Source: an uncultured Leptospiraceae bacterium (GTDB taxonomy: Bacteria; Spirochaetota; Leptospiria; Leptospirales; Leptonemataceae). From it: 24,000 nucleotides of DNA. The translations under genes and the position numbers were made by a program. This document shows, in pieces, positions 2,771 to 23,306 of the stretch. The notes under the pieces were generated by a model. The model saw nothing but the letters and a program-made list of their open reading frames with translations, was not told the origin of the DNA and searched no databases. Within the stretch, counting starts at the first letter, position 1. The number at the start of each line of letters is the position of its first letter. Where the stretch lies: NCBI GenBank assembly GCA_964619535.1, contig CAZUEX010000006.1, positions 6,548-30,547 of the forward strand, in the 5' to 3' direction.

Positions 2771-4936
2771 ATGCAATCCTCTTCTTATATTTTGGACAGC
2801 AGCCACGGACAGGTTTCCATTCAACGGCAGGACGATGGCTTTCCGCTGATCCAGGCTGAAAGCAGGGCCGGCGCCCTTTACGGGCTTGGGTTTATCCATG
2901 CCGTAGACCGCCAGATGCAGATGTGGATGCTGAAAACGATATGTATGGGTAGGGCATCGCAGTGGCTGGCTGCCGACCCCGAGCTCATTGCCCTTGACCG
3001 TCTGGTCCGCTGGATCGACTTCTACGGCGATGCAGGCAGGGAGTTCAAAAGGCTGAGCCCCGAAACCAGAAGGCTGCTCGAAACCTACTGCCATGGTGTG
3101 CAGGAAGGTGTACGCAGGGCGGGCATCCCATTTGAAATGAAGCTTGTGCGCCATCCCTGCCCTGCATGGGAGCCACGAGACATCATGGCGCTGGTAAAGA
3201 TGATCGGCTTTCTCGGGCTCACGCAAACACAGGGCGACTCAGAGAAGTTCATCATTCATCTGCTGCGCGAAGGCATTCCCGTTGATCTGGTCAGAGAACT
3301 GTTTCCGGCAATAAAGGACAAGGTCACACCTGACTACCTGAAGCTTCTGCAATCTCTTCGGTCTTTTACGCCTCCTGCAGGACTGAGCGGACCGGCCTCC
3401 CTGTTTTCCATTCGAGCCAGCAACAACTGGGCCATTGCTCCATCGCGAACAGAAACATCACATGCCATCCTCTGTGGCGATCCGCACCTGTCCCTGTCCT
3501 TGCCATCGGTATGGTACCCTGTAAACATTCACTACGGTAACGACTACTTCATGGGAGCCACCATGGCCGGCGCTCCCCTTCCCGTCTTCGGGCGCACCGC
3601 CAACCTCTCCTGGGCCGTCACGTATGGAACAGCCGATACCGTGGATTATTCGATCGAAGAAATCCGTCAGGGGCGCTATCGTCGCGGAAACCGGTGGCTG
3701 CCACTGAAGCCGCGCGAAGACCTGCTAAAGCCGAAGGGGCAGCAACCACAGAAACTCCGTTTTTATGAAACCGATGCAGGCTTGATCGAAGGGGAGGTAA
3801 CCGAAGACGGCCATTACCTGTGCTATGCCTGGACGGGTCGCCAGCACGTTTCTGCAGAATCCGTCGAATCCTTTATGAAGCTGTATACGGTACGGGATGT
3901 AAAGACCGCCCAGAAAACGTTTGCCTCAATGCCCTTTGCAGCCTTCCACTGGGTATGTGCAGATCGCCACGGCAATATTGGCTACCAGATGAGCGGACTC
4001 GTTCCGCGCAGGCAACGAGGAGTATCCGGCCTGCTTCCCTTTCCGATGTGGAACAAAAAGCGTCCCTGGACGGGCATGGTGCCACCGGAACAGATGCCAC
4101 AGGCCTATAACCCAGCAGAAGGCTACATCGTAACGGCCAACAATGACCTCAGCCATCTGGCAAAGGCAGACATCTTTACTCTGCCCATGCCTTCGTATCG
4201 ATCCGATCGTATTACCCGGGCCTTGAAACAAAACCGGCACTGCACGGTAGAGCAGATGCAGGCATTGCAGTATGACCTGTATTCTATACAGGCTGAGAAG
4301 TTCATGGCGGTGATAAGGCCCTTGCTTCCCGATACTCGAAAAGGAAGGATCCTTGCCGAATGGGACCTTCGCTATGATGCCAGCAGTGAAGGGGCAACGC
4401 TGTTTGAGGCAATCTATCGCGAATTGATTTACGAAGTGTTCGGAAGAGTTCTTGGCCAGGAACAGATGAAATTGATCTTCGAGCAAACAGGACTGTTTGC
4501 CATGTTACATGGCTTCTTCGATCGGATCCTTCTGAAAAAACGTTCGCGGTGGTTTGGCGAACGACATCGCGATGACCTCTACCGTGCAGCCATTGAGCGC
4601 GGCCTTGCAGTGCCAGAACGACGCTACGGACAGCATACCTTCTATATTGAAAACCTGTTTTTTGGAGGACGCCTGCCTCGCTTTTTGGGATTCGATGCCG
4701 GTCCTCTGCCATTGCCCGGTGGCAGGGCAACGATCCCACAGGCACAGGTCTTTCAATGGCTGGGCCGTCAGGCATCCTTTGCTCCAAGCATGCGTTTTAT
4801 TACCGAGATGGGATCCGACGAAGCCCTGATCAACAATCCAGGAGGCCCCTCTGACCGTCGCTTTTCAAAGCTGTATACCAGAGGACTTGCAGACTGGCTG
4901 GAAGGACGCTACCATCGGTACCGCCGGCCAGACTAA
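2771..4936 (+). CDS. Penicillin acylase family protein (Ntn hydrolase; possible N-acyl-amide / acyl-homoserine-lactone acylase)
   Basis: 721 aa. The beta-subunit nucleophile motif RA-SNNWAIAPSRTETSHAILCGDPHL places the catalytic Ser at residue 217 (AGC 3419-3421). Family-typical GLGFIHAVDRQMQM lies near the N-terminus. Confidence 0.9.
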   Translation: MQSSSYILDSSHGQVSIQRQDDGFPLIQAESRAGALYGLGFIHAVDRQMQMWMLKTICMGRASQWLAADPELIALDRLVRWIDFYGDAGREFKRLSPETRRLLETYCHGVQEGVRRAGIPFEMKLVRHPCPAWEPRDIMALVKMIGFLGLTQTQGDSEKFIIHLLREGIPVDLVRELFPAIKDKVTPDYLKLLQSLRSFTPPAGLSGPASLFSIRASNNWAIAPSRTETSHAILCGDPHLSLSLPSVWYPVNIHYGNDYFMGATMAGAPLPVFGRTANLSWAVTYGTADTVDYSIEEIRQGRYRRGNRWLPLKPREDLLKPKGQQPQKLRFYETDAGLIEGEVTEDGHYLCYAWTGRQHVSAESVESFMKLYTVRDVKTAQKTFASMPFAAFHWVCADRHGNIGYQMSGLVPRRQRGVSGLLPFPMWNKKRPWTGMVPPEQMPQAYNPAEGYIVTANNDLSHLAKADIFTLPMPSYRSDRITRALKQNRHCTVEQMQALQYDLYSIQAEKFMAVIRPLLPDTRKGRILAEWDLRYDASSEGATLFEAIYRELIYEVFGRVLGQEQMKLIFEQTGLFAMLHGFFDRILLKKRSRWFGERHRDDLYRAAIERGLAVPERRYGQHTFYIENLFFGGRLPRFLGFDAGPLPLPGGRATIPQAQVFQWLGRQASFAPSMRFITEMGSDEALINNPGGPSDRRFSKLYTRGLADWLEGRYHRYRRPD

Positions 4937-12038: not shown

Positions 12039-13130
12039 ATGACTGCAACATTTCTTGAGCCTCGTATCGGCTCCAGGAAAGGACTGTTTGATTCACGGGA
12101 TGCCTCTATGGTGAGCAAATTACGCTCCGTCATGGAGAAGTTTGAGACGATATCATACACCTGTGTCCTTGATCAGAGAATGCAGATCGTCCGGGCCAAT
12201 GAACGATGGGCCGCCTTGATGGACAGCCCCGAACCAGTTGCCGGTAACAGCATCCTTCCCCTTCTGGAAAAAGCAGGGCTCTTACGCATGGCCATTCACA
12301 TTGCCAGGGCCATGAACAGGCACAGAACCTTCCGACAGGAGTTTGTTCTCTCAGATAACGTATCTCCCCGGTGGTTCGATCTACATGTAACCCCCTACCA
12401 TGACGAAAACGGGAATACGGCCGGTGCTGTGGTCATATTGCTCGATATTACGGAACGCAGGCAGGTAGAGGATGCAATGGCCTTCTACGCCTACCACGAC
12501 ACGCTGACCGGCCTGCCAAACCGACGCCGCTTCGATGACAGAATGCAACAAACCAGGCTTCGTGCAGACCGGTTAAACGAGAAGTTTGCACTGTTCTTTG
12601 TCGACCTGGACCGCTTCAAACAGGTCAATGATACCTACGGTCATCGAGTGGGGGATGCCGTTCTCATCGAAGTGGCCACCCGCATTCAAAAGGTTCTGCG
12701 ACGAGACGATACCGTCTGCCGTCAGGGGGGCGATGAGTTTATCGTTTTACTGCCAGGCATCCACCATGCCGATGATGCAGCTGCCGTGGCCAAAAAGCTC
12801 ATTGCTGTACTGTCCGAGCCCATCTACGTCGGCGAAACAGGCTGTAACGTAGGCGCCACCGTCGGCATTGCCATCTATCCTGACCACGGCAGGTCCCCGG
12901 ACCAGCTAATACAGCATGCTGACAGTGCGCTTTACAGGGCGAAGGCCCTGGGGCGGGGCCGCTTCGCCTTTTTCGAAGACAGGCATAGCGGCATTCCGAT
13001 CCCCCTCCGACAGGAGGAGCGTACCGAGGTGTTGAAAATCCCCGAAAACTGCCAGAAATGTTTGAAACGGATTGCCGTCGGTGCCGGCCTGTCGCCACAG
13101 GATCTGTCGCTTCTGGCCAGCAACCGATAG
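12039..13130 (+). CDS. PAS-domain diguanylate cyclase (GGDEF) with intact I-site
   Basis: A PAS-like region ends in LLDITERRQVE. It is followed by YHDTLTGLPNRR...FFVDLDRFKQVNDTYGH..GD and RRDDTVCRQGGDEF, i.e. RxxD five residues before GGDEF. Confidence 0.92.
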   Translation: MTATFLEPRIGSRKGLFDSRDASMVSKLRSVMEKFETISYTCVLDQRMQIVRANERWAALMDSPEPVAGNSILPLLEKAGLLRMAIHIARAMNRHRTFRQEFVLSDNVSPRWFDLHVTPYHDENGNTAGAVVILLDITERRQVEDAMAFYAYHDTLTGLPNRRRFDDRMQQTRLRADRLNEKFALFFVDLDRFKQVNDTYGHRVGDAVLIEVATRIQKVLRRDDTVCRQGGDEFIVLLPGIHHADDAAAVAKKLIAVLSEPIYVGETGCNVGATVGIAIYPDHGRSPDQLIQHADSALYRAKALGRGRFAFFEDRHSGIPIPLRQEERTEVLKIPENCQKCLKRIAVGAGLSPQDLSLLASNR

Positions 13131-13132
13131 AG

Positions 13133-13564
13133 CTACCGCCTTACGGCTGCATCGATCTTCCTGCGGTTCTTTTCAAAGGCCGTGTCGGCATCCTCTGAAA
13201 ACCAGGAATCAAAGAAAAACAGGTTGGCGCTTCCCGATTCAAGACGCTGCACCACCTTTCCCGAATCTCTGTCGATCAAAAGGGCAAAGCCCGTCCCCTG
13301 GCTATGCGCATCAAAGGCATCGAGGATTCCAAGCTCCCTGGCCTTTTCGCGTGCCCGGGCTGCCGTTGCATCGCCGGTAAGATCAAAAACGACGACCTCA
13401 ATGCCCTTCGATTGAGCATACTGGCTCAGCTCGGCAAACCCTGGATGCACCTGGTCCCAGCGCTTACACGATGGACACCAGTCCGCATGAAATTTTGCCA
13501 GTACGAGGCTTTCGGCAGCCAGTGGCGATACGAACAGAAGCCCCAGCAGTATCCATCTTCTCAT
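13133..13564 (-). CDS. Exported thioredoxin-fold protein (WCPSC active site)
   Basis: Signal-peptide-like MRRWILLGLLFVSPLAAE followed by LAKFHADWCPSCKRW. Its ATG overlaps the upstream cyclase stop (ATGA at 13561-13564). Confidence 0.8.
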   Translation of the reverse strand: MRRWILLGLLFVSPLAAESLVLAKFHADWCPSCKRWDQVHPGFAELSQYAQSKGIEVVVFDLTGDATAARAREKARELGILDAFDAHSQGTGFALLIDRDSGKVVQRLESGSANLFFFDSWFSEDADTAFEKNRRKIDAAVRR

Positions 13565-14841
13565 TGTTTTCCTCCGTCTTTCAGCATGGCATATCGACGC
13601 TTGAATTCCTCGTTTGGATGGTTCGGACTCTTTTCCAGTTCAGGCCGGATGCCCCGAACAAGAAACATCTCCATCTCTCCCTTACCCTTTACGGGCAACT
13701 GGCCGCGACTTTCACAGACGAAGAAATCCTTCACCTGATCATAGAGATCTTTTGAAATGTTCACCTGGCCGGGAACTCCTGACGATTCCATACGGCTGGC
13801 AGTGTTTACCGTATCACCCCATACATCGTAGACGAACTTGTCGGTTCCAACGACGCCTGTAATCACTGGACCGCAGTGCAATCCGATTCGTAAACTCCAG
13901 CCTCTGGCTGCCTCACTCGATGCTGCATGTCGTTTCATCAGCCTGTGAAAGCGAAGAGCACAGAGAACGGCATCGACGGGATGTGTATGGTTTTCTTCGG
14001 GGATGCCACCGGCTGCCATGTAGGCATCGCCAATCGTTTTGATCTTCTCAAGGCCTGTGGCTCGAACAGCGCCATCGAAGGCTGCAAAGATCTGATCCAG
14101 CTCCTGAATCAGGTCTGCAGGCTTCATATTGGCGCTTGCACGTGTAAAGCCTGTCATATCAGCAAAAAGAACGGTAGCATAGGCATAGCCGCGAGGCGTG
14201 ACCCGGTCTCGCATCTTCAGCTCTTCGGCTACAACGTCGGGAAGAATGTTGCGCAACAATCGATCCGACTTCAGTCGCTCAAACTCAAGGTTCCTGGACA
14301 GGATAAAGATCAGAATGCCGGTCAGCAGCTGTACAAAGAGGTAGTTGCTGCCTGCATCCATCACCCGCTCTTCCCGCGACGGATACATCGTAATGTACTC
14401 AGGATGAAAATACTCTGTCAGGAAAAGAGCGGCGACCGTTGCCAGCGAAACAGAGTAGATCAGGTAGGGCTTGCGGCCATCAAGCAGGATCGTTGCAATG
14501 ACCAGGGCCGGTATAAAGTAGTAATGCGCCCCTCCAACAGAGCCTCCATTCCAGAACCAGTTGAACGACAGAAAGGCAAGCAGCGAAATATTGAAAACCC
14601 AGAACAGAGATTGATGACGGGATCGGAACCGCGATATGTAATAGTAGACCAGAAACAAACTGCCCGATATAAAATGCAGAAGGAACAGGCGCAGTGGATC
14701 AGGCAGGGTCAGGGCAGCAAAGGCACCGAACAGGTTCAGGACGCCATTGACAAGGCTGACCGAGTTAAAGAGCCGTGCAGAAAGAGGATCCAGCCTGGGA
14801 TCCCCCACAAGAGCGATCAGAAAGCGTTGCAGGGCTTTCAT
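13561..14841 (-). CDS. Membrane-bound class III adenylate cyclase (N-terminal ~6-TM domain + CHD catalytic domain)
   Basis: ATVLFADMTGFT, KIKTIGDAYMAAGG and FVYDVWGDTVNTASRMES carry both metal Asp residues and the adenine-type Lys/Asp pair. Roughly the first 190 aa are hydrophobic helices. Confidence 0.9.
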   Translation of the reverse strand: MKALQRFLIALVGDPRLDPLSARLFNSVSLVNGVLNLFGAFAALTLPDPLRLFLLHFISGSLFLVYYYISRFRSRHQSLFWVFNISLLAFLSFNWFWNGGSVGGAHYYFIPALVIATILLDGRKPYLIYSVSLATVAALFLTEYFHPEYITMYPSREERVMDAGSNYLFVQLLTGILIFILSRNLEFERLKSDRLLRNILPDVVAEELKMRDRVTPRGYAYATVLFADMTGFTRASANMKPADLIQELDQIFAAFDGAVRATGLEKIKTIGDAYMAAGGIPEENHTHPVDAVLCALRFHRLMKRHAASSEAARGWSLRIGLHCGPVITGVVGTDKFVYDVWGDTVNTASRMESSGVPGQVNISKDLYDQVKDFFVCESRGQLPVKGKGEMEMFLVRGIRPELEKSPNHPNEEFKRRYAMLKDGGKQ

Positions 14842-15218
14842 GCCTGCCTCCTGCTCTGCAAGCGATCCAGCAAAAGGATGGCTGAAGCTGCTGCAAGGAT
14901 CAGGCAGGCCATGCCAAACAGCAGTCCTGAATCGTTCTGTACCTCGATACCCAGTACCGTCAGGTGAAGAACGATCGCAGGCCCGATAATCAGAATCGAC
15001 AGAAGTGCACCCTTTCTGTAATGAGCAGGCCAGATCAGCAGGACGGCAGCCAGCAATTCGCCAAGTGCCGTCAGATAGCGGCCAGCAGGTTCCATCCCCA
15101 CGGTTTCGAAGATATGCACGGATTCAGGCGAACCGCTGAACTTAAAGAACAGTGTCTGCAAAAAAATTATTGCCACAATCCATCTCAGGATCACAATCAT
15201 ACTTCTCCGGGCCTGCAT
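14838..15218 (-). CDS. DoxX-family integral membrane protein
   Basis: 126 aa and four TM segments, with a DoxX-like pattern (RWIVAIIFLQTLFFKFSG...ALGELLAAVLLIWP...). Its stop overlaps the cyclase ATG (ATGA at 14838-14841). Confidence 0.7.
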   Translation of the reverse strand: MQARRSMIVILRWIVAIIFLQTLFFKFSGSPESVHIFETVGMEPAGRYLTALGELLAAVLLIWPAHYRKGALLSILIIGPAIVLHLTVLGIEVQNDSGLLFGMACLILAAASAILLLDRLQSRRQA

Positions 15219-15357
15219 ACAGGCTTATTCGCAACGGTCTGCGTCGGGTTGCACACGGAAACAAAGCTCTGCCAGAAAAGATTTCGAAAATCCGATCCCC
15301 GGAAAAGACTCATGTACACACTAAAAGGAAAGAATCAAAGAAAAAGAAGGCCTTTCG

Positions 15358-15891
15358 ATGAAACCCACTGCTCCGAACTACGAAAATCGTGAGATGAACT
15401 CTACACAGAAAACATCTCCGGTCGCTTCTTTACAGGAACTCCTGAAACAGACTCGCAACCTGCTGCAACAGATCACGGACGAACAATATACACTGAGCGT
15501 TACCGACAATGCCTCCGGTGTCGGCGCTCATATTCGCCACACATTGGATCATATTCGCGCACTTCTGAACAGTCGTCAGGGCTCGGTGGTGGACTATGAT
15601 ACCAGAGAGCGTAACACCGTAATCGAGCGATCGCGTTCCTCTGCCATACAGGCCATCGACGAGATCATTAGCGAGCTTAACGATATCTCGGATAGAGATC
15701 TGCACATTACCGTAGAACTGCAGCTCCTTGTTGCTCCTTTTCAGCCGCGCTACACCACAACCTCAACGATCGGTCGCGAGCTGGCCTTTGTTCTGCACCA
15801 TGCCATACACCATAATGCCATGATCGCTTCCATTTTTCCAGCCTTGGCATTGACGTTCCTGCCTTTTTTGGCTTTGCGCCGGCAACTATAG
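15358..15891 (+). CDS. DinB-fold (DinB_2-like) metal-binding protein; C-terminus apparently frameshifted (conserved tail continues in another frame to 15905)
   Basis: GAHIRHTLDHI...VDYDTRERN...STIGRELAFVLHHAIHHNAMI is a His-triad DinB_2 pattern. The family-typical tail SLGIDVPAFFGFAPATIEVLS is encoded in the -1 frame from about 15838 to the TGA at 15903-15905. Confidence 0.75.
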   Translation: MKPTAPNYENREMNSTQKTSPVASLQELLKQTRNLLQQITDEQYTLSVTDNASGVGAHIRHTLDHIRALLNSRQGSVVDYDTRERNTVIERSRSSAIQAIDEIISELNDISDRDLHITVELQLLVAPFQPRYTTTSTIGRELAFVLHHAIHHNAMIASIFPALALTFLPFLALRRQL

Positions 15892-15913
15892 AAGTTCTAT
15901 CTTGAGGAAGACC

Positions 15914-16642
15914 ATGTGCACCCTTACGATACTACCGAGAACCGATGACGGCTTGCTATTCTCGGCCATGATCAATCGTGATGAGCTGCGCAGCAGAAAA
16001 AAGGCCACACCTCCGGCCTGGCAGGACGGTATCTTTGCTCCACGCGACACCGATGCCGGTGGAACCTGGACGGCCATCAACCGGGCAGGCCTGATCGGCT
16101 TCGTGCTGAATCGATCCGAAAAGGACAACCATTATAACGATGGCTCCATAAGCCGGGGCAGTCTTTTGCCGATACTTCTCAGGGCTTCTTCGGTAAACTC
16201 GGCGGTGAACGCCTTTGGCTACATCCCTCTGGAGAAAATGCGCCCTTTCTATTGTCTTCTTCGCGACACCGCCAGTCAGATCCTTTTCACGTATAACGGC
16301 AGATCTCTTACCAGAACTACAGTGCCACTCGATCAGCCCTTTCTACTTGCAACGTCAGGGCTGGGGGATGGGCTGGTGCGTCCGTATCGCGAAGCACGCT
16401 TTCTTAAGCTACTCCAAAGCGGCAGAAACCGGGAAGCACAGAAGAGCTTCCATCACACCTTCGATCCTGAATACCCTGTACAGAGCGTTCTGATGCAGAG
16501 AGATGAAGCCAGAACCGTTAGCATCACCTCCTATGCCATCGAAGAGAACGCTGCTACGATAGAGTACCGGGACATAGACTCCACAGAAAGTGTTCAAACT
16601 CGCATCGCCCTGCAGGCAGAGGAAAGCTACCGTGCCCCTTGA
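15914..16642 (+). CDS. NRDE-family (TANGO2-like) protein
   Basis: It starts MCTLTILP (Cys2) and has the eponymous NRDE motif at residues 21-24 (AMINRDELR). GAGGAAG lies 4-5 nt upstream of ATG 15914. The TTG at 15902 in the ORF track is unlikely to be the start. Confidence 0.85.
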   Translation: MCTLTILPRTDDGLLFSAMINRDELRSRKKATPPAWQDGIFAPRDTDAGGTWTAINRAGLIGFVLNRSEKDNHYNDGSISRGSLLPILLRASSVNSAVNAFGYIPLEKMRPFYCLLRDTASQILFTYNGRSLTRTTVPLDQPFLLATSGLGDGLVRPYREARFLKLLQSGRNREAQKSFHHTFDPEYPVQSVLMQRDEARTVSITSYAIEENAATIEYRDIDSTESVQTRIALQAEESYRAP

Positions 16643-16643
16643 C

Positions 16644-18197
16644 ATGTCTTCAGAATGGGCCTTTGCCCTCTCCGTGATCCTGGCCACCTTCATTGCAGAA
16701 GATGCCACACTGATTGCCGTTGGCCTGGCCATCGGTGCCGGCATGGTCTCGCCCCTGACAGGACTGGCCTCTGCCTTCAGCGGCGTGCTTCTGGGAGATG
16801 CAGGGCTGTGGGTTGTCGGTGCCCTTTTACAGAAAACAGGGCTAAAACGCTGGCACAGAATCCGCGTTGCTGCCGAGAAAGGCAGCCAGTTTCTAAGGCA
16901 GCATACGGGTAAGCTTGTCATCTCTGCCCGGTTCATTCCCGGACTGCGCCTTCCGGTCTATCTTGCAGCAGGGTTTACGCATCGCCGCTTTTCGTCGTTC
17001 TTGCTCTATGCTGCCCTGGCCGTCTTCCTGTGGACGCCCCTGCTGGTAGGCCTCTCCGCTATGCTTGGAAGAGCCGCCGCAGAAACGCTGCAGACATACA
17101 GCTACCTCATGTTTCTTCCTCTTCTGTCGATGTTTGCAGGCCCCATCATGCGTCTTGGCGGCCGACGGTTTCCGCGTTTGCGGCGATATGAATTCTGGCC
17201 TGCCTGGATCTTCTACGCCCCTCTTATTCCGTATATTCTCTATCAGAGCCTTCGCTCAGGCGGATTTGGGACCATTGCAGCGGCCAATCCTGCCATCCCT
17301 GGCGGTGGCATTGTCGGCGAATCGAAGTTTCAAATACTGTCCCTGCTTCCGCCTCTGCATTCGTTACGAACCGATCTGATCCCCGGGGATGGGGATCGTT
17401 CCAGCCGTCTTGATGATGTTCTTGCTTCGCGTAGGAACCGCTTCCCTGTCATTATGAAGCCCGATGCTTCACAGCGCGGTGCATCGGTTCGAGTTTTACA
17501 CAGCCGTCAGCAGATGCAGGCCTATCTGGAACAGACCCCGGGGGATGTTCTTGTTCAGGACTATCACCCTGGCCCGGCTGAGGTAGGAATCTTCTATGTC
17601 AGGGATCCCGATTGGCACAGGGGGCAGATCTTTTCGATAACGGGCAAAAGGTTTCCCGCTGTTCGTGGTGATGGAGTGCATACGCTAAAGCAGCTCATCG
17701 AATCGCATGACAGGTATCGCTTTCAAAAGAACGTTTTCTTTCGTCGCTTCAAGGATCAGCTGCACATCGTTCCCGAAGAAGGGAAGACCGTTTCCCTTGG
17801 CAAAGTGGGTAACCACTGCCAGGGCACTTCGTTCTACGATCGCAGCGATCTCATCACCGAGGAGCTTACGCGAGCCATCGATGAAATGGCACAGGCCATG
17901 AACGGCTTTTACTTTGGACGGTTTGACATTCGCTTTGAATCCGAAGAGGCCTTAAAGCAGGGACGGGACTTCTACGTGGTAGAAGCCAATGGCGTTACCT
18001 CAGAATCCACCAACCTGTATGATCCTTCTTTTTCATTACTGCAGGCCTATTCGATCCTGTTTCTGCAATGGAAGACACTTTTTGTCATTGCTCGCAAGAA
18101 CCGACGGCGTGGCATCCCGGGCAGCAACCTGTTCCGGATCGCAAGAGAAACCGTCGAGTATTACCAGAAAAGAGAATTCCCCGCAGATTCTGACTGA
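16644..18197 (+). CDS. Fusion protein: N-terminal DedA/VTT membrane domain + C-terminal ATP-grasp ligase domain
   Basis: DedA motifs are present: FIAEDATLIAVGLAIG, GVLLGDAGLWVVG and ARFIPGLRLPVYLAAGF. After about residue 200, ATP-grasp-like strands follow: FPVIMKPDASQRGASVRVL, VLVQDYHPGPAEVGIFY, GNHCQG and FGRFDIRFES...FYVVEANGVTSEST. ATG 16644 lies 1 nt after the NRDE stop, and GTG 16632 is an alternative start. Confidence 0.8.
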   Translation: MSSEWAFALSVILATFIAEDATLIAVGLAIGAGMVSPLTGLASAFSGVLLGDAGLWVVGALLQKTGLKRWHRIRVAAEKGSQFLRQHTGKLVISARFIPGLRLPVYLAAGFTHRRFSSFLLYAALAVFLWTPLLVGLSAMLGRAAAETLQTYSYLMFLPLLSMFAGPIMRLGGRRFPRLRRYEFWPAWIFYAPLIPYILYQSLRSGGFGTIAAANPAIPGGGIVGESKFQILSLLPPLHSLRTDLIPGDGDRSSRLDDVLASRRNRFPVIMKPDASQRGASVRVLHSRQQMQAYLEQTPGDVLVQDYHPGPAEVGIFYVRDPDWHRGQIFSITGKRFPAVRGDGVHTLKQLIESHDRYRFQKNVFFRRFKDQLHIVPEEGKTVSLGKVGNHCQGTSFYDRSDLITEELTRAIDEMAQAMNGFYFGRFDIRFESEEALKQGRDFYVVEANGVTSESTNLYDPSFSLLQAYSILFLQWKTLFVIARKNRRRGIPGSNLFRIARETVEYYQKREFPADSD

Positions 18198-18214
18198 TTC
18201 AGGAGAGGTTCATT

Positions 18215-18961
18215 ATGAAAACCGAGTTGAAACAGGCCTTTATTGCAAGGACCCCTGCAGAACGAGAGGCTGCATTGCGATTAAGACATGAGGTCTTCTC
18301 GATAGAGCAGGGGCACGGAACAAGCGGGGCAGAGGATGGCATCGACCGGGATCCCTTTGATGATTACTGCGAGCATCTGATCGTCCTTCATCCAACCCGG
18401 TCAGAGACCGTAATCGGAACCTACAGAATCCTGCTATCAGATGTAGCGGAAACAGGTCCGGGCTATTACTCTGAAACAGAATTTGATCTAAGCGGAATCC
18501 GGAAGCTGCCCATGCGCAAGGCCGAAATTGGACGAAGCTGCGTTCATCCAGATTTTCGTGATGGCAGCGTCATCCGGCTTCTATGGGCAGGCCTGGTAAG
18601 ATTCATGCAAGAGTCCGGTGCAGGCTGCTTTATGGGATGTGGCTCCCTGCCTGGCAGCGACGTAAAGCTGGCCGAGATCACCTATGCCTGTTTCCGTGAA
18701 GCAGGCAGGGTTTTGCCGCAGCACGTCGTGCAGCCGGTTCCTGAAGCACGGTTACCCGAATTCCAAACGGACATCATACTGGAAGACAGAAAACAGGGCA
18801 ATCGAATGATGCCTCCTCTGATGAAGGGCTATATGCGTGCCGGTGCATGTATTGCGGGCCCCCCTGTCTGTGATAGCCGCTTTGGAAGTATCGACTTCTT
18901 TCTTATCTTCTTTCCTGAATCAGGGAATACCGAATATAAGCGGCATTTTGGTTTAGAGTGA
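18215..18961 (+). CDS. OlsB-type GNAT N-acyltransferase (Acetyltransf_5 / 'putative hemolysin' family; acyl-ACP-dependent amino-acid N-acyltransferase)
   Basis: AALRLRHEVFSIEQG...DRDPFDDYCEHLIVLH...VIGTYRIL...YYSETEFDL...AEIGRSCVHPDFR...LLWAGL...GCGSL matches the OlsB / lyso-ornithine-lipid synthase family pattern. AGGAGAGG lies 7 nt upstream of the ATG. Confidence 0.85.
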   Translation: MKTELKQAFIARTPAEREAALRLRHEVFSIEQGHGTSGAEDGIDRDPFDDYCEHLIVLHPTRSETVIGTYRILLSDVAETGPGYYSETEFDLSGIRKLPMRKAEIGRSCVHPDFRDGSVIRLLWAGLVRFMQESGAGCFMGCGSLPGSDVKLAEITYACFREAGRVLPQHVVQPVPEARLPEFQTDIILEDRKQGNRMMPPLMKGYMRAGACIAGPPVCDSRFGSIDFFLIFFPESGNTEYKRHFGLE

Positions 18962-18971
18962 AACCAGCCCC

Positions 18972-19015
18972 CTCCATTTGCGAATGATACACAGTCCGAT
19001 CATACACAAATGGAG
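18972..19015 (+). promoter_or_regulatory. Extended hairpin whose 3' arm contains the Shine-Dalgarno of the peroxiredoxin-like gene
   Basis: CTCCATTTG (18972-18980) pairs perfectly with CAAATGGAG (19007-19015). An inner ATGAT (18984-18988) / ATCAT (18999-19003) stem sits across a symmetric 3x3 internal loop. The GGAG at 19012-19015 is the SD for ATG 19022. No U-tract follows. Confidence 0.35.
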
Positions 19016-19021
19016 AGTAAC

Positions 19022-19589
19022 ATGGCAGAGAATATCGCCACTACGGCAGAAAAGATTCAGCCCCTGTCGGTGGGTTCCAGAGTACCTGATGTCACACTGA
19101 AGCTGGTAGACGGGAAGACCTGCTCCCTGAAAGAACAGCTTGGCGGAAAGCCTTCCCTCATCATCTTAATATAGAGGTGGATGGTGCCCTTACTGCAACA
19201 AACAGCTGGCCAACCTGAGGCTCATCGAACAGGATATTCTCAAGGCTGGCGTACAGATTGTTGCCCTCTGTGCGGACAGGCCCGAAAAGGTAGCTGAAAC
19301 GCTGGAGCAACACAAGCCAGTGTACACGATCCTTTCCGATAATGACCTGGCAGCAGCTTCAGCCTTTGGCATCACCTTTCGCGTCGATGACCAGATGCTT
19401 GCAATGCTAAAAGAGCATAACCTTGATATCGAAGATGCATCAGGAAAGACACACCACCTTCTGCCGGTGCCGGCAGTGTTTGCTGTGGATGCAGGTGGAA
19501 CGATACAGTTCAGCCATGCCAATCCAGACTACACGGTGCGCATGTCCAATGCAGAGGTGATGGAGGTGGTCAAGCAAATGACGAAATAG
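19022..19589 (+). pseudogene. Peroxiredoxin-like (AhpC/TSA-redoxin fold) protein with WCPYC active site, interrupted by a +1 frameshift at ~19169
   Basis: Frame 1 reads MAENIATTAEKIQPLSVGSRVPDVTLKLVDGKTCSLKEQLGGKPSLIILI and then hits a stop (TAG 19172-19174). The next frame, from 19170, continues YRGGWCPYCNKQLANLRLIEQDILKAGVQIVALCADRPEKVAE...YTILSDNDLAAASAFGITFRV... to 19589. Together the two parts form one canonical family member. Confidence 0.85.
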
Positions 19590-19627
19590 ACCATTCGTCG
19601 TGCTGTTCTGCATTCGTCTATTTCCTG

Positions 19628-19656
19628 TCGACAGCAAGAAGGCAGGCAGTTAGACT
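19628..19656 (+). promoter_or_regulatory. Sigma-70-type promoter positioned for a leaderless egtB transcript
   Basis: TCGACA (19628-19633), a 17-nt spacer, then TAGACT (19651-19656). The egtB ATG is at 19664, 7 nt after the -10 element, with no SD in between. The -10 hexamer is the same as in the elaB-like promoter. Confidence 0.45.
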
Positions 19657-19663
19657 GTATACA

Positions 19664-20809
19664 ATGCTGAAAGAACAGTACCATCACGTAAGGCAGGCCT
19701 CCACGGGCATGGTGCAACCTCTTGAAACAGAGGACTTTGTTCTACAGCCCGTGGAGTTTGTCAGCCCTCCACGATGGAATCTGGCCCATACGACGTGGTT
19801 CTTCGAAGAATTCGTCCTTGCACAGTTTACGGACGATTACAGGCGCTATCATCCACAGTATGCCTTTCTCTTTAACAGCTATTACAATGCAGTCGGTGAT
19901 CGCACCCCAAGGCCGCACAGAGGACATCTCAGCCGGCCGACGGTTCAGGAGATCATGGACTATCGTTCCTATGTAGATGAGCAGATGGATCGCTTCTTCG
20001 ACTCAGATCGATGCACAGCAGAAGCACAGGAGATGATCACCCTCGGACTGCATCATGAGCAACAACACCAGGAGCTTTTCTACACGGATCTGAAATACAC
20101 CTTTCACCTGAATCCCCTGTTTCCCGTTTACAAAGACGTCGGTTTCTGCGAACAATTGCCACAGGGGGACGATCGTTTCATACGTATTCCAGAAGGGATC
20201 TATCGCATCGGCTATGAAGGGGATGGCTTCTGCTTTGATAACGAACGCATGGCCCATAACGTCTTTCTACAGTCCTTTGAAATCCAGAACCGGCTGGTGA
20301 CCAATCGAGAATACATGGACTTCATCGAAGACGGGGGATATGAGTCCTTTTCGCTATGGCATGAAGAGGGCTGGAACACCATCGCAGCGAAAAAGGCTCC
20401 GCTGTACTGGATGCGCATCGACGGCATCTGGCATCATTATACGTTAGCAGGCCTTCGTCCTGTCAATCCGGATCATGTGCTCAGCCATGTAACGTATTTC
20501 GAAGCGGCTGCCTTTGCCCGCTGGATGGGCTGCCGCCTGCCAACGGAGTTTGAATGGGAGGTGGCATCGGATTCCTTTGCCTGGGGACAGCGCTGGGAAT
20601 GGACCGAAAGCGCCTACCTGCCCTATCCCGGATTTCAAACGGCCGACAATGCTGCCGGCGAATACAATGGTAAGTTCATGGTGAACCAGAAGGTACTGCG
20701 GGGCGCATCGGCAGCCACCCCCGCCGGACATGCCCGTAAAACATATCGCAATTTCTTTCATCCCCACATAGGCTACCAGTACAACGGAATCAGGCTGGCC
20801 AGAGATTGA
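19664..20809 (+). CDS. egtB: Ergothioneine biosynthesis sulfoxide synthase EgtB (short form: DinB_2 + FGE-sulfatase-like domains)
   Basis: SPPRWNLAHTTWFFEEFVL, LFNSYYNAVG, LGLHHEQQHQELFYTDLKY, and the C-terminal FGE-like WEWTESAYLPYPGF...VLRGASAATPAGHARKTYRNFF. Confidence 0.9.
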   Translation: MLKEQYHHVRQASTGMVQPLETEDFVLQPVEFVSPPRWNLAHTTWFFEEFVLAQFTDDYRRYHPQYAFLFNSYYNAVGDRTPRPHRGHLSRPTVQEIMDYRSYVDEQMDRFFDSDRCTAEAQEMITLGLHHEQQHQELFYTDLKYTFHLNPLFPVYKDVGFCEQLPQGDDRFIRIPEGIYRIGYEGDGFCFDNERMAHNVFLQSFEIQNRLVTNREYMDFIEDGGYESFSLWHEEGWNTIAAKKAPLYWMRIDGIWHHYTLAGLRPVNPDHVLSHVTYFEAAAFARWMGCRLPTEFEWEVASDSFAWGQRWEWTESAYLPYPGFQTADNAAGEYNGKFMVNQKVLRGASAATPAGHARKTYRNFFHPHIGYQYNGIRLARD

Positions 20810-20811
20810 TC

Positions 20812-21762
20812 ATGCAAACGTTAACACAATTCGCTTCGGATACGATTACAGGCCTGCAGGCGCATCCCAAATTCCTTTTGCCGCGACACTTCTACGATGA
20901 TCGCGGTTCTCTGCTCTTTCAGAAGATTACGGAATTACCCGAATACTATCTTTACAGGGCTGAAGAGGCTATCCTTTCTGCCGAGGCCGATAAGCTGCCT
21001 CAGATCATCGGAAAACGCCCCCTGCAGATCATCGAGCCTGGAGCAGGAGACGGACAGAAGGCACGCTACATTTTACAGGCCTTTGCAAAAAGCCAGAAGG
21101 AGTTTTGCTATATTCCCGTGGACATCAGCGTCGATACGAATGACAGACTGGCCACGTCCCTGAAGCAGGAGTTTCCCGGCCTTTCTGTAAATCCCCTGCA
21201 TGGCGACTACTTTACGGTCTTGAAGAATCTTCCTGCCACAGAAGACCATGAACGCCTCATCCTCTTTCTGGGCTCCAATATCGGCAACTACTCCGGCGAA
21301 GAAACGGATGCACTTCTTTCCATGCTTCACAGCCTGTTGAATGCCTCCGATCATCTGTTGATCGGTTTCGACCTGAAGAAATCCCCCGAGCGAATCCTGC
21401 GCGCCTACTCAGACGGAGCCGGCATTACGCGCGAATTTAACCTGAATCACCTTAGGCGGATCAACCGCGAACTCGAAGCAAACTTCGACGTAGATTCTTT
21501 CGAACATCATGCATCCTACGACCCCCTCAGCGGTGAGGTGAAAAGCTATCTCGTAAGCACGCGAAAACAAACCGTGCATCTAAAACGGCTCAATACGGAA
21601 ATCGTCTTCGATGCATGGGAGCCGATCTACATGGAGGTTTCGCGCAAATACGACATCCCGACGATTGAATCACTGGCACACCGGCATGGCTTTCAGTGTC
21701 AGCAACACTTCTTTGCCAGGGATCGCGATTTCGTTGATTCACTGTGGATCAAAGTGGGCTAA
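20812..21762 (+). CDS. egtD: L-histidine N-alpha-methyltransferase EgtD
   Basis: FYDDRGSLLFQKITELPEYYLYRAEEAIL, IIEPGAGDGQK, YIPVDIS, LFLGSNIGNY, GFDLKK...AYSDGAGITREFNLNHLRRINREL. ATG 20812 lies 2 nt after the egtB stop. The TTG at 20806 in the track is unlikely to be the start. Confidence 0.92.
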   Translation: MQTLTQFASDTITGLQAHPKFLLPRHFYDDRGSLLFQKITELPEYYLYRAEEAILSAEADKLPQIIGKRPLQIIEPGAGDGQKARYILQAFAKSQKEFCYIPVDISVDTNDRLATSLKQEFPGLSVNPLHGDYFTVLKNLPATEDHERLILFLGSNIGNYSGEETDALLSMLHSLLNASDHLLIGFDLKKSPERILRAYSDGAGITREFNLNHLRRINRELEANFDVDSFEHHASYDPLSGEVKSYLVSTRKQTVHLKRLNTEIVFDAWEPIYMEVSRKYDIPTIESLAHRHGFQCQQHFFARDRDFVDSLWIKVG

Positions 21763-21783: not shown

Positions 21784-23106
21784 TTATGTACCGGGTTCAT
21801 CCAATCGTAACCGGAAGGCCTGAACGGGCTTTTCATTGCCCTTTACGCGCATCGGTTCAAGGGCCTCAAAGTGCAATCCATAGGCGTTCACGGGATCGCC
21901 GCCGGTCAGAGAAAGCACCTTTTCAAACGTCGTCTGATCGCAGAGAATCGAATCCGATACCTGCATCAGCCTGGCAGCCAGATTCACAACGTTGCCATGC
22001 ATCGTATACTCACTGCGAATCTCATTGCCCATAGGACCGACAAAGACAACGCCCGTACCGATTCCTATAACAGCTCTGTGTCCCATGGCTCCAAGCTCTG
22101 TAACGATGTCACGTGCAGAAAAGATAGCCCGCATGGCATCGTCGTGGTGGTCCAGAGGCGGCAGACCAAAGGCAGCCAGAATCACCGTACCTTTTTCTTC
22201 GATGCCAAAACGGTTGATGGCCCCCTCATAGCGGTACAGGCCATCCTGCACCTTGCGCATTACCCTGTGCACCTCTTCAATAGGAAGCTCTGCCGTATGC
22301 CATTCCAGGATGCGAATAAAAAGGACGGTAACCGTTCGCACCTCGAAGGCCGTTGACCCACGCCCTTCTTCGATCAGATTGATGATACGCCGCGGAATAA
22401 AACAGCGCAGTGCTTTTTCGCAGTCGTCTTTCAGGACCGGAATGGGTAGCGGTCCTGGCGGTTCTGCATCCGATCGACGTTCGATAAATAGACGGTCCTC
22501 TTTGCGATGCCCCGCCTGGATCGAGCGGATCATGCGGGCTCCCTGAGGGGAGATGACCACCTGGCCGGGCTCGGCCCGCTTCTGGGCCCGACCGACCTGA
22601 TCCACGGCATCCCCTCCGATCAGGAACTCCCAGCGATCGTAGAGCCCGCCCACCATCTGCGCAAGAAGCGGACCGGCACCGACCCCAATCCGCAAACAGA
22701 GCTCCATACCCGATCCGATCTTGGTGCGATGCAGCTTATGCTGTAGTTCCAGCCCGCAGTGTGCAGCCCGCAGGGTCATACGCCCCAGTTCCTGCTCGGA
22801 TGCAGCAGGCCAGACGGCGATCAGGGCATCACCGGCAAATTTCAGGATGTCGCCACCGAAATCATCGATTATGTCGATCTGACGGCTTAGATACAGGTTC
22901 ACAATGTCTGCCAGCTCGATCAGGCCGTTGGAAGAAAGCTTCATGATCTGCTCTGTAAGCGTCGTGAAGCCGGCCATATCGGCAAACAATGCTGCCCCTA
23001 CAATACTCTCAGCTACGGGACGTTCCGGAGCTGCCGGATGCTCGACAAGGTGCTCGAGAACCAGACGAGGTGCATATTTATGTAGCTTACTCAGGAGTTC
23101 TGACAT
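21784..23106 (-). CDS. Tandem-domain (C1-C2) class III nucleotidyl cyclase resembling the soluble adenylyl cyclase (sAC/ADCY10) catalytic core
   Basis: C1: ALFADMAGFT ... FGGDILKFAGDALIAVW. C2: VTVLFIRILEW ... KGTVILAAFGLPP ... RSEYTMHGNVVNLAARLMQ. The start is uncertain: ATG 23106 gives MSELLSKLHKYAPRLV, while the TTG at 23157 from the track has no SD at useful spacing. Confidence 0.88.
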   Translation of the reverse strand: MSELLSKLHKYAPRLVLEHLVEHPAAPERPVAESIVGAALFADMAGFTTLTEQIMKLSSNGLIELADIVNLYLSRQIDIIDDFGGDILKFAGDALIAVWPAASEQELGRMTLRAAHCGLELQHKLHRTKIGSGMELCLRIGVGAGPLLAQMVGGLYDRWEFLIGGDAVDQVGRAQKRAEPGQVVISPQGARMIRSIQAGHRKEDRLFIERRSDAEPPGPLPIPVLKDDCEKALRCFIPRRIINLIEEGRGSTAFEVRTVTVLFIRILEWHTAELPIEEVHRVMRKVQDGLYRYEGAINRFGIEEKGTVILAAFGLPPLDHHDDAMRAIFSARDIVTELGAMGHRAVIGIGTGVVFVGPMGNEIRSEYTMHGNVVNLAARLMQVSDSILCDQTTFEKVLSLTGGDPVNAYGLHFEALEPMRVKGNEKPVQAFRLRLDEPGT

Positions 23107-23306
23107 CCGGTCCGCCTGGAATTGAGACAGGAAAACCTCCCTTTGCAGGTTTTGCAACCGTTATCGGCATTAAACTGCCCCTCCCTTCTTAAATCGCAAG
23201 AAAATTTCTGGCATATTCTTAGAGGAAGAATGCAAAATCACCTGTAGCAAAGTGCAAAACAGCCACCAGATGGCAGGTCCTGCCGATAGAGAGGGATGCA
23301 TTGAAG

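Follow-up and report, generated by a model that had tools for sequence, protein, structure and literature searches.

A widespread DinB, NRDE/TANGO2 and DedA::ATP-grasp gene module associated with aminolipid synthase genes: a candidate head-group ligase system in Leptospirales and other bacteria

Ornithine lipids are synthesized via three described routes (OlsBA, OlsF and OlsHI), and five modifications of these lipids have been reported (PMC12971839; PMC11631085). Peptide-headed aminolipids such as those carrying Ser-Gly or Orn-Ser-Gly also exist, whereas for the ATP-dependent transfer of taurine onto the carboxyl group of ornithine lipid no gene has been known since the 1970s (PMC12971839). 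Leptospirales carry OlsB homologues, and no aminolipid has been reported for this order (PMC12971839). In the present study, a stretch of 24,000 nucleotides (nt) from an uncultured Leptospiraceae bacterium (contig CAZUEX010000006.1, positions 6,548 to 30,547; referred to as the window) was analyzed with respect to four co-directional genes at 15358-18961. These encode a DinB-fold protein, an NRDE/TANGO2-family protein, a fusion of a DedA membrane domain to an ATP-grasp ligase domain (DedA::ATP-grasp) and an OlsB-like N-acyltransferase of the GNAT type. All parts belong to known superfamilies, and the first three form a widespread module that is itself undescribed. In agreement with the first-pass annotation of this sequence, which did not recognize the combination as a described system, no published account of DinB, NRDE and DedA::ATP-grasp occurring together was found in the literature; neither are these three proteins part of any described ornithine-lipid pathway (PMC11631085, PMC12971839). 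Based on gene neighborhoods and domain architectures, the module probably acts on aminolipids of the OlsB/OlsF type.

All four genes were located at the coordinates previously given, with the spacers of 22, 1 and 17 nt as claimed. The gene for the DinB/YfiT-fold putative metalloenzyme occupies 15358..15905 on the plus strand and is frameshifted: the open reading frame as read covers 15358-15891 and ends in TAG, and the repaired frame extends to a TGA at 15903-15905. It is followed by the gene for the NRDE/TANGO2-family protein (15914..16642, plus strand), which starts with an ATG at 15914, 22 nt behind the DinB stop, and is preceded by GAGGAAG at a distance of 4 nt. The fusion gene comprises the DedA/VTT membrane domain (16644..17189, plus strand) and the ATP-grasp carboxylate-amine ligase domain (17190..18197, plus strand); its ATG at 16644 lies 1 nt behind the NRDE stop ending at 16642, and the public gene call places its start at GTG 16632, resulting in an 11-nt overlap with the NRDE gene. 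Between the stop codon of the fusion gene (18195-18197) and the ATG of the GNAT gene (18215..18961, plus strand), the 17-nt spacer holds AGGAGAGG. The view that these genes constitute a single unit is supported by this tight spacing, by a 4-nt overlap of the NRDE and ligase genes in two annotated loci from other phyla and by the domain fusions described below. Scanning of the region 14700-19800 for promoters and terminators yielded weak consensus matches only, and no known RNAs or riboswitches were found in the window at Rfam gathering thresholds.

Conservation of the gene neighborhood was evaluated in 80 loci, which were fetched and searched with the window proteins and with profile models built from them; component counts refer to those 66 loci in which 3 kb or more of upstream sequence was available. 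A DinB gene was present upstream of the ligase gene and on the same strand in 60/66 loci, and an NRDE gene in the same orientation in 50/66, never without DinB. An alpha/beta hydrolase domain was found in 34 of the 66, in nearly all cases as an N-terminal fusion to the DedA domain, and a DoxX gene adjoins the module in 23. The latter is located directly upstream on the same strand in Planctomycetota and downstream in Acidobacteriota and Leptospiraceae. Hence, the neighborhood is kept across phyla, and the conserved unit is DinB, NRDE and DedA::ATP-grasp, complemented by the frequent (and usually fused) alpha/beta hydrolase and DoxX. The GNAT gene, initially counted as a member of a four-gene set, is a facultative neighbor of this core.

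The DedA::ATP-grasp family is represented by more than 1400 matches in a protein collection clustered at 90% identity, by 1144 representatives at E < 1e-30 in a library clustered at 50% identity and by no fewer than 519 loci confirmed in GTDB species genomes. Genomes harboring it belong mostly to Planctomycetota, and furthermore to Acidobacteriota and Leptospirales, with single genomes from Gemmatimonadales, Rhodothermaceae and Kiritimatiellia. Additional information on the interplay of the components was obtained from fused proteins. Protein P0262 (1121 amino acids (aa), starting with MCTV) consists of NRDE, one hydrophobic helix, hydrolase, DedA and ATP-grasp, and P0307 is composed of ATP-grasp, one hydrophobic helix and hydrolase. 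The fusions demonstrate that NRDE, hydrolase, DedA and ligase work together. Since NRDE requires its N-terminal Cys to be free and the ATP-grasp domain depends on ATP, both should reside in the cytoplasm, and the lone helix separating the hydrolase from the cytoplasmic domains indicates that the hydrolase is probably periplasmic. An alpha/beta hydrolase whose gene follows on this contig at a distance of approximately 9 kb downstream (L081, 20299-21390) was considered as the module hydrolase and rejected, as it scored 12.6 bits compared to 300-450 bits for true orthologues. Conservation and domain fusions rule out chance adjacency, and a role in anti-phage defence was discarded after none of the five proteins tested matched a PADLOC family.

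Genes for aminolipid synthases adjoin the module in three independent gene orders, which strengthens the link to amide lipids put forward in the first-pass annotation. In the first order (17 loci), genes for an OlsB-like protein and an OlsA-like PlsC protein are located directly upstream of the DinB gene on the same strand, the OlsA-like gene being placed between OlsB and DinB. These loci are labelled Acidobacteriota, Gemmatimonadales, Rhodothermaceae and, in one case, Planctomycetota, and several of them bear other labels that are possibly unreliable; the OlsA-like genes match OlsA equivalog models at E-values of 1e-31 to 1e-41. The second order (17 loci, mostly Planctomycetota) features an OlsF-like gene of approximately 600 aa just downstream in convergent orientation, whose product combines an acyltransferase domain at the N-terminus with PF13444 at the C-terminus and matches the OlsF model at E 1e-120, with 402 bits compared to a cut-off of 620. 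In the third order, observed for the window and for its 72%-identity relative L082, the OlsB-like gene stands alone behind the ligase gene. Flanks of up to 8 kb were fetched on each side, and an aminolipid synthase (13 OlsF-like, 11 OlsB plus OlsA) was encoded in 24 of the 47 loci for which 4.5 kb or more was available on each side. The occurrence of three arrangements favors functional coupling over inherited synteny.

The window GNAT itself covers the full profile of Acetyltransf_5 (PF13444, 1-102/102) with 105.7 bits (cut-off 22.4) and thus carries the domain defining aminolipid N-acyltransferases in the OlsB/OlsA and OlsF systems. Its scores on OlsB equivalog models (128.9 and 127.9 bits) remain far below the cut-offs of 350 and 320, respectively, so that specificity for ornithine is not indicated. 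Its nearest named relatives are GNATs of Leptospiraceae and Leptospirales (42-46% identity), and it occurs in the identical position in L082, which characterizes it as a lineage-specific aminolipid-synthase neighbor of the module. The first-pass annotation had noted that an OlsA-type O-acyltransferase is missing and had concluded that the gene set does not resemble a classical ornithine-lipid locus. The lack of OlsA applies to this lineage only, and in the window the PlsC profile matched no open reading frame. Elsewhere, by contrast, the module is found directly beside OlsB plus OlsA or an OlsF-like synthase, and it therefore appears to assist classical aminolipid synthesis instead of replacing it. 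The module (L010) and an OlsB-like gene (L088) also occur in one Leptospiraceae genome on different contigs, representing co-occurrence without linkage. At L088 (8001-9648, from a Leptospiraceae metagenome-assembled genome), the OlsB-like GNAT gene overlaps a downstream gene of the FA_desaturase family, with no OlsA-type gene at this place; judged from the sequence, this pairing suggests a different aminolipid tailoring in Leptospirales.

Pfam searches assigned all four window proteins above cut-off (DinB_2, TANGO2, VTT/DedA and Acetyltransf_5). Within the fusion protein, the DedA domain was recognized by the VTT model PF09335 (51.3 bits; cut-off 33.9), and its E19/D20 and R96-F-x-P-G-x-R102 motifs are invariant among 20 homologues. 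UptA and DedA equivalog models were matched weakly (28 and 27 bits; cut-offs 236-250), and the domain may be involved in the translocation of a lipid or polyprenyl-phosphate. The C-terminal 335 residues matched no Pfam model at threshold, the best being TTL and RimK with 15.2 bits and E ~0.01 (cut-offs 20-21), and the NCBIfam cyanophycin synthetase model yielded 20.7 bits compared to a cut-off of 850. Since no curated ATP-grasp model was matched, this domain appears to represent a distinct family lacking such a model. The previous ATP-grasp call is nevertheless confirmed, not by Pfam, but by profile and structure comparisons. A profile of the 20 homologues searched against the PDB matched the G domain of cyanophycin synthetase (CphA1) at E 0.003. 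Moreover, an AlphaFold2 model of the domain (predicted local distance difference test score, pLDDT, 79.7) retrieved GshF, CphA1 and Ddl in Foldseek at E-values of 1e-9 to 1e-7 and probability 1.00, the top match being the ATP-grasp domain of a bifunctional glutathione synthetase.

Residues expected for binding of ATP and Mg, namely K272-P-D274, R426-x-D428 and E447-x-N449, are invariant among the homologues, which share 41-73% identity. The KPD segment aligns with the VIKP strand of CphA1, and the invariant set presumably corresponds to K144, D257, E270 and N272 of Ddl. Accordingly, the domain has the fold, the ATP-binding Lys and the D/E/N Mg-ligand motifs in common with the G domain of cyanophycin synthetase, GshF/GshB, Ddl and RimK; all of these enzymes couple an amine to a carboxylate group that belongs to an amino acid or to the end of a peptide. 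It differs from the known ATP-grasp ligases in sequence (identity below 21%, in addition to the missing Pfam match), in the replacement of the usual N-terminal domain by the DedA membrane domain and in an invariant GNHCQG motif specific to the module family. This motif (G389-N-H-C-Q-G394, nt ~17808-17825) contains an invariant His-Cys pair kept across the ATP-grasp family of the module, and a Cys at this site is unusual for ATP-grasp ligases.

The NRDE protein, a putative Cys N-terminal-nucleophile (Cys-Ntn) amidase or acyltransferase, matches the TANGO2 model PF05742 with 50.9 bits (cut-off 22.6), begins with MCTLT and carries the sequence INRDE. Affiliation to PF05742, an N-terminal Met-Cys and the N-R-D-E motif are likewise features of human TANGO2 and of HtpA from Shewanella. 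Of 58 module-linked homologues, 56 have Cys in the aligned position and 54 have Met directly before it; for N, R, D and E, conservation amounts to 91% or more at each residue. Human TANGO2 underlies a severe metabolic disease, and the biochemical function of the protein is disputed. Judging from its crystal structure, it may be a Cys-Ntn hydrolase with fatty-acid derivatives as substrates, having a fatty-acid-sized pocket, a putative active site formed by the N-terminal Met-Cys and N-R-D-E, and resemblance to lipid amidases, namely acid ceramidase, NAAA and bile-salt hydrolase (PMC13044924). Bacterial homologues, on the other hand, were reported as haem-trafficking proteins (PMC10470608). In contrast to the latter, the context of NRDE described here consists of lipid enzymes, and no haem or cytochrome-maturation genes were seen among those module neighbors that were identified. 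Unlike TANGO2 and HtpA, module NRDE proteins are in some genomes fused to the hydrolase-DedA-ATP-grasp chain. Another type of N-acyl-amide hydrolase, a penicillin-amidase-family Ntn hydrolase (455 bits), is encoded in the window at 2771-4936 on the plus strand.

For the DinB protein, matches to DinB_2 (31.4 bits; cut-off 24.8) and to the DinB Pfam model were obtained. Its AlphaFold2 model (pLDDT 90.3) is most similar to DinB/YfiT proteins in the PDB, with mycothiol and bacillithiol S-transferases following lower in the list. The motifs HxxxDH and HxxHH and a C-terminal FG(Y/F)AP(A/S)T are kept across homologues; among 30 homologues, no variation was seen at H61, H148, H151 and H152, and conservation of D64 and H65 reaches at least 90%, consistent with the His metal ligands of DinB/YfiT-like metalloenzymes. 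The frameshift suspected in the first-pass annotation is real, since comparison with the sister strain L083 revealed a 1-nt deletion near 15838: the window reads CATTTTTC-CAGC where the sister strain reads CATTGTTCGCAGC, i.e., one base is missing in 15830-15845. In L083, DinB is intact with 182 aa, ends in FGFAPATIEVLS, in accordance with the C-terminal family motif (FGFAPAT), and its stop is positioned 8 nt before the NRDE gene. Due to the deletion, the reading frame in the window is not intact, and the conserved C-terminal 20 residues, SLGI(D/E)VPAFFGFAPATIEVLS, are exchanged for unrelated ones. The identical deletion was present in an independent assembly of run SRR7082968, and the intact form was found in SRR29457795 and other samples (P0397).

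The model outlined in the following draws on the domain identities, motifs, conservation, fusions and synthase linkage described above and proposes substrates, a reaction direction and a topology. Products of the OlsB-type GNAT family are N-acyl amino acids, i.e., lyso-aminolipids, and such a compound would be provided by the GNAT in the first step. In the second step, the cytoplasmic ATP-grasp domain, held at the membrane via DedA, would activate a carboxylate as acyl-phosphate and form an amide. The substrate would most likely be the free alpha-carboxyl group of the aminolipid head group, and the product a head group bearing an additional amino acid or amine. In the structural relatives CphA1, GshF, Ddl and RimK, the group that becomes activated is an alpha-carboxylate, either on an amino acid or at the end of a peptide. 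The alpha-carboxylate of an aminolipid is its obvious equivalent, so that the head group would be extended. Such an extension by the ligase was also proposed in the first-pass annotation and is plausible chemistry as judged from the sequence. Subsequently, DedA may present the lipid or flip it across the inner membrane, by analogy to the flippase domain of MprF, and cytoplasmic Cys-Ntn NRDE together with the hydrolase, where present, could act on the lipid's amide and ester bonds for trimming, reversal or recycling. DinB and DoxX may add a metal- or thiol-dependent step. While action on aminolipids as such is considered probable, this specific division of labor, with the ligase forming the amide on the head group at the membrane, DedA handling or flipping the lipid and NRDE and hydrolase trimming or recycling it, is proposed tentatively as the best available explanation, somewhat short of an even chance.

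Two known systems resemble this model. MprF is an aminoacyl-phosphatidylglycerol synthase fused to a flippase, and thus, like the module, combines a lipid-translocating membrane domain and a cytoplasmic head-group synthase in one polypeptide. Association with hydrolases is a further common trait, the module hydrolase being probably periplasmic. The folds, in contrast, are unrelated, MprF uses aminoacyl-tRNA instead of an acyl-phosphate generated from ATP, and its lipid is phosphatidylglycerol, whereas an aminolipid is the probable one for the module. The second system is cerilipin formation in Gluconacetobacter cerinus, in which an amide on the alpha-carboxyl group of an aminolipid is formed in an ATP-requiring reaction, i.e., the chemistry expected of an ATP-grasp enzyme encoded beside an OlsB gene (PMC12971839). 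The amine in cerilipin is taurine, and the module family is distributed mainly in Planctomycetota, Acidobacteriota and Leptospirales.

Several observations weigh against a head-group ligase acting on aminolipids. The interpretation is derived entirely from sequences and predicted structures, about half of the fully flanked loci are devoid of an aminolipid synthase within 8 kb, and the window lacks both the PlsC-type acyltransferase mentioned above and the module hydrolase. Owing to the frameshifted DinB gene, the module may be impaired in this particular strain. DinB, DoxX and the recurring CxxC redoxins are not accounted for by a simple ligase model, and neither are two further proteins, a Rieske fusion and a 257-aa protein, that join the block in a number of loci (see below). 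Furthermore, the best, albeit weak, matches of the DedA domain are undecaprenyl-phosphate transporters, and the lipid could thus be a polyprenyl carrier.

As an alternative, the module could represent an aminolipid synthase independent of acyl carrier protein, in which the ATP-grasp domain would convert a free fatty acid into an acyl-phosphate and use it for N-acylation of an amino acid, and the fused hydrolase would perform O-acylation like OlsI. The module would then constitute an additional aminolipid route encoded next to the classical one. Precedents exist for both reactions: N-acyl amino acids can be formed via acyl-phosphates by ATP-grasp enzymes, as in the case of the Legionella acyl-histidines (PMC11631085), OlsI is an alpha/beta hydrolase proven to be an aminolipid O-acyltransferase, and OlsH is ATP-dependent (PMC12493201). 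The fusion of hydrolase and ATP-grasp in two different domain orders and the many planctomycete loci with neither OlsB nor OlsF nearby would also fit. However, the nearest structural relatives of the ATP-grasp domain use carboxylates of amino acids or peptides and not fatty acids, and the lone helix probably places the hydrolase in the periplasm, away from cytoplasmic acyl donors. Such a synthase would moreover be redundant beside the complete OlsB plus OlsA or OlsF-like synthases in 34 loci, and NRDE and DinB would be left unexplained. This alternative is regarded as unlikely.

Of similarly low likelihood is a function in turnover or remodelling of aminolipids. Here, the hydrolase would cleave the ester-linked fatty acid, NRDE would act as an amidase on the amide-linked 3-hydroxy fatty acid, DedA would move the substrates, and the ATP-grasp domain would re-ligate or salvage the head group. 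A dedicated hydrolase (e.g., of the PA0919 and AcvB types) often accompanies synthases that modify lipids, such as MprF, which would be in line with this function, as would the hydrolase domain in 34/66 loci and the likeness of TANGO2 to lipid amidases (PMC13044924). A purely degradative system, though, needs no ATP-dependent ligase as its most conserved component, and the hydrolase is not present in about half of the loci, the window included.

A connection to thiol or redox metabolism was evaluated on the basis of the neighboring genes. In the window, a gene for a DoxX-family membrane protein (14838..15218, minus strand; PF07681, 28.1 bits) is located divergently from the module. A gene for a peroxiredoxin-like thioredoxin-fold protein with a WCPYC motif (19022..19589, plus strand), possibly an accessory redoxin, follows the GNAT gene and is split by a frameshift near 19150-19167, where SLIILI and a stop codon are followed by YRGGWCPYCN in the +1 frame. 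As the gene is called as fragments of 50 and 89 aa in two other assemblies and is hence split alike in three assemblies, it is probably a genuine pseudogene. A small thioredoxin-like protein (13133..13564, minus strand; PF00085, 23.8 bits), which carries a WCPSC motif behind a hydrophobic N-terminal leader, is of uncertain membership, and a search for homologues among the 80 loci gave none. In approximately 23 other loci, unrelated CxxC redoxins are encoded next to the module. A first type (15 loci), encoded upstream of DoxX, is an AhpC/TSA protein of 304 aa that contains a DCPYC motif and whose C-terminal extension is unassigned. The second (8 loci), unrelated to the first, has a QCPLC motif and a hydrophobic N-terminal leader and is mostly encoded just downstream of the ligase gene (L004, L024, L035 and L036; elsewhere in the locus in L034, L059, L061 and L074). 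In approximately 16 loci, a protein composed of a ferric-reductase-type transmembrane domain fused to a Rieske domain and the 257-aa protein join the block. Together with the 304-aa AhpC/TSA protein, they are encoded upstream of DoxX-DinB-NRDE in L084 (3565-6462), L005, L008, L009, L011, L013, L015, L021, L069, L077 and others; in L069 and L077, the Rieske fusion and the 257-aa protein are located directly upstream of OlsB.

Ergothioneine had been named as a possible partner because an egtB-egtD pair lies nearby. This pair (19664-21762, overlapping by 4 nt) is genuine (TIGR03440, 496 bits; TIGR03438, 295 bits). Its adjacency is, however, not conserved: EgtB and EgtD queries found no match in the 80 loci by tblastn, and at the L082 locus genes for an adenylate cyclase and PurT follow the GNAT gene instead of egtBD. 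The ergothioneine part of this proposal was consequently dropped, while a looser thiol or redox connection survives in the recurring CxxC redoxins and DoxX. A GshF-like ATP-grasp enzyme might accordingly make a thiol amide, either soluble or anchored to an aminolipid, with DinB as S-transferase and the redoxins and DoxX as partners. The glutathione synthetase domain ranking first in Foldseek, the mycothiol and bacillithiol S-transferases within the DinB fold, the glutaredoxin-like CPYC/CPLC proteins of the thioredoxin fold at varied positions, the window WCPYC pseudogene and the frequent neighbor DoxX are all compatible with such a pathway. It is nonetheless rated as quite improbable, given that redoxins accompany a minority of loci, the window redoxin is a pseudogene in three assemblies, egtBD adjacency is not conserved and no sequence feature marks cysteine as the substrate; the DedA fusion and the linkage to OlsB and OlsF additionally count against a soluble thiol.

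A variant combining both lines of evidence is a membrane-anchored thiol. In this case, the ATP-grasp domain would join cysteine or a related thiol amine to the aminolipid carboxylate, DedA would flip the product to the periplasmic leaflet, exported CPYC/CPLC redoxins and DoxX would use it as redox buffer or electron shuttle, DinB would serve as S-transferase, and NRDE would recycle the compound. The probability assigned to this variant is very small. If true, glutathione, mycothiol and bacillithiol would have a lipid-linked equivalent in this thiol, and the TANGO2 family would obtain its first defined biochemical context.

Modification of a polyprenyl-phosphate-linked cell-wall precursor, with DedA handling undecaprenyl-phosphate intermediates, the ATP-grasp domain adding an amino acid to a peptidoglycan or glycan precursor and the aminolipid linkage being incidental, is in accordance with the UptA transporters as best equivalog matches, with Ddl-type ligases among the closest structures and with the existence of ATP-grasp ligases modifying peptidoglycan precursors, e.g., the D-aspartate ligase of Enterococcus, but is highly improbable considering that the UptA match amounts to 28 bits compared to a cut-off of 250, that no cell-wall genes were among the recurrent neighbors identified while aminolipid synthases recur in three orders, and that a lipid-amidase-like NRDE is fused into the same protein.

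Further genes were observed around the module. Class III adenylate/guanylate cyclases flank the region at 13561-14841 and 21784-23157 (both minus strand), and a PAS-GGDEF protein is encoded at 12039-13130. Homologues of the cyclase at 13561-14841 with 50-54% identity are located beside the module in L062, L070, L073 and L080, the one in the Leptospiraceae metagenome-assembled genome L070 being 52% identical. The window matches contigs from two sequencing runs, and the relatives of its GNAT and of this cyclase suggest, at low confidence, that it stems from a deep-branching lineage within Leptospirales. Moreover, a HELGH zinc-protease-like protein of approximately 245 aa with a hydrophobic N-terminal leader is encoded immediately downstream of the ligase gene in L039, L046, L052, L058, L062, L063 and L080, loci labelled Acidobacteriota, Blastocatellia or Heliomicrobium.

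For Leptospirales, the module points to uncharacterized membrane lipids. The membrane-tethered ATP-grasp ligase encoded beside OlsB/OlsA and OlsF-like genes represents a clonable candidate for the missing enzymes extending aminolipid head groups. Furthermore, the module connects DedA with one defined class of lipids, a link seldom available for this family. For the TANGO2/NRDE family, it provides a conserved bacterial context of lipid-amide enzymes, in places as a physical fusion. This context supports the structural proposal that TANGO2 is a Cys-Ntn enzyme acting on fatty-acyl derivatives, with N-acyl amino acids and aminolipids as candidate substrates.

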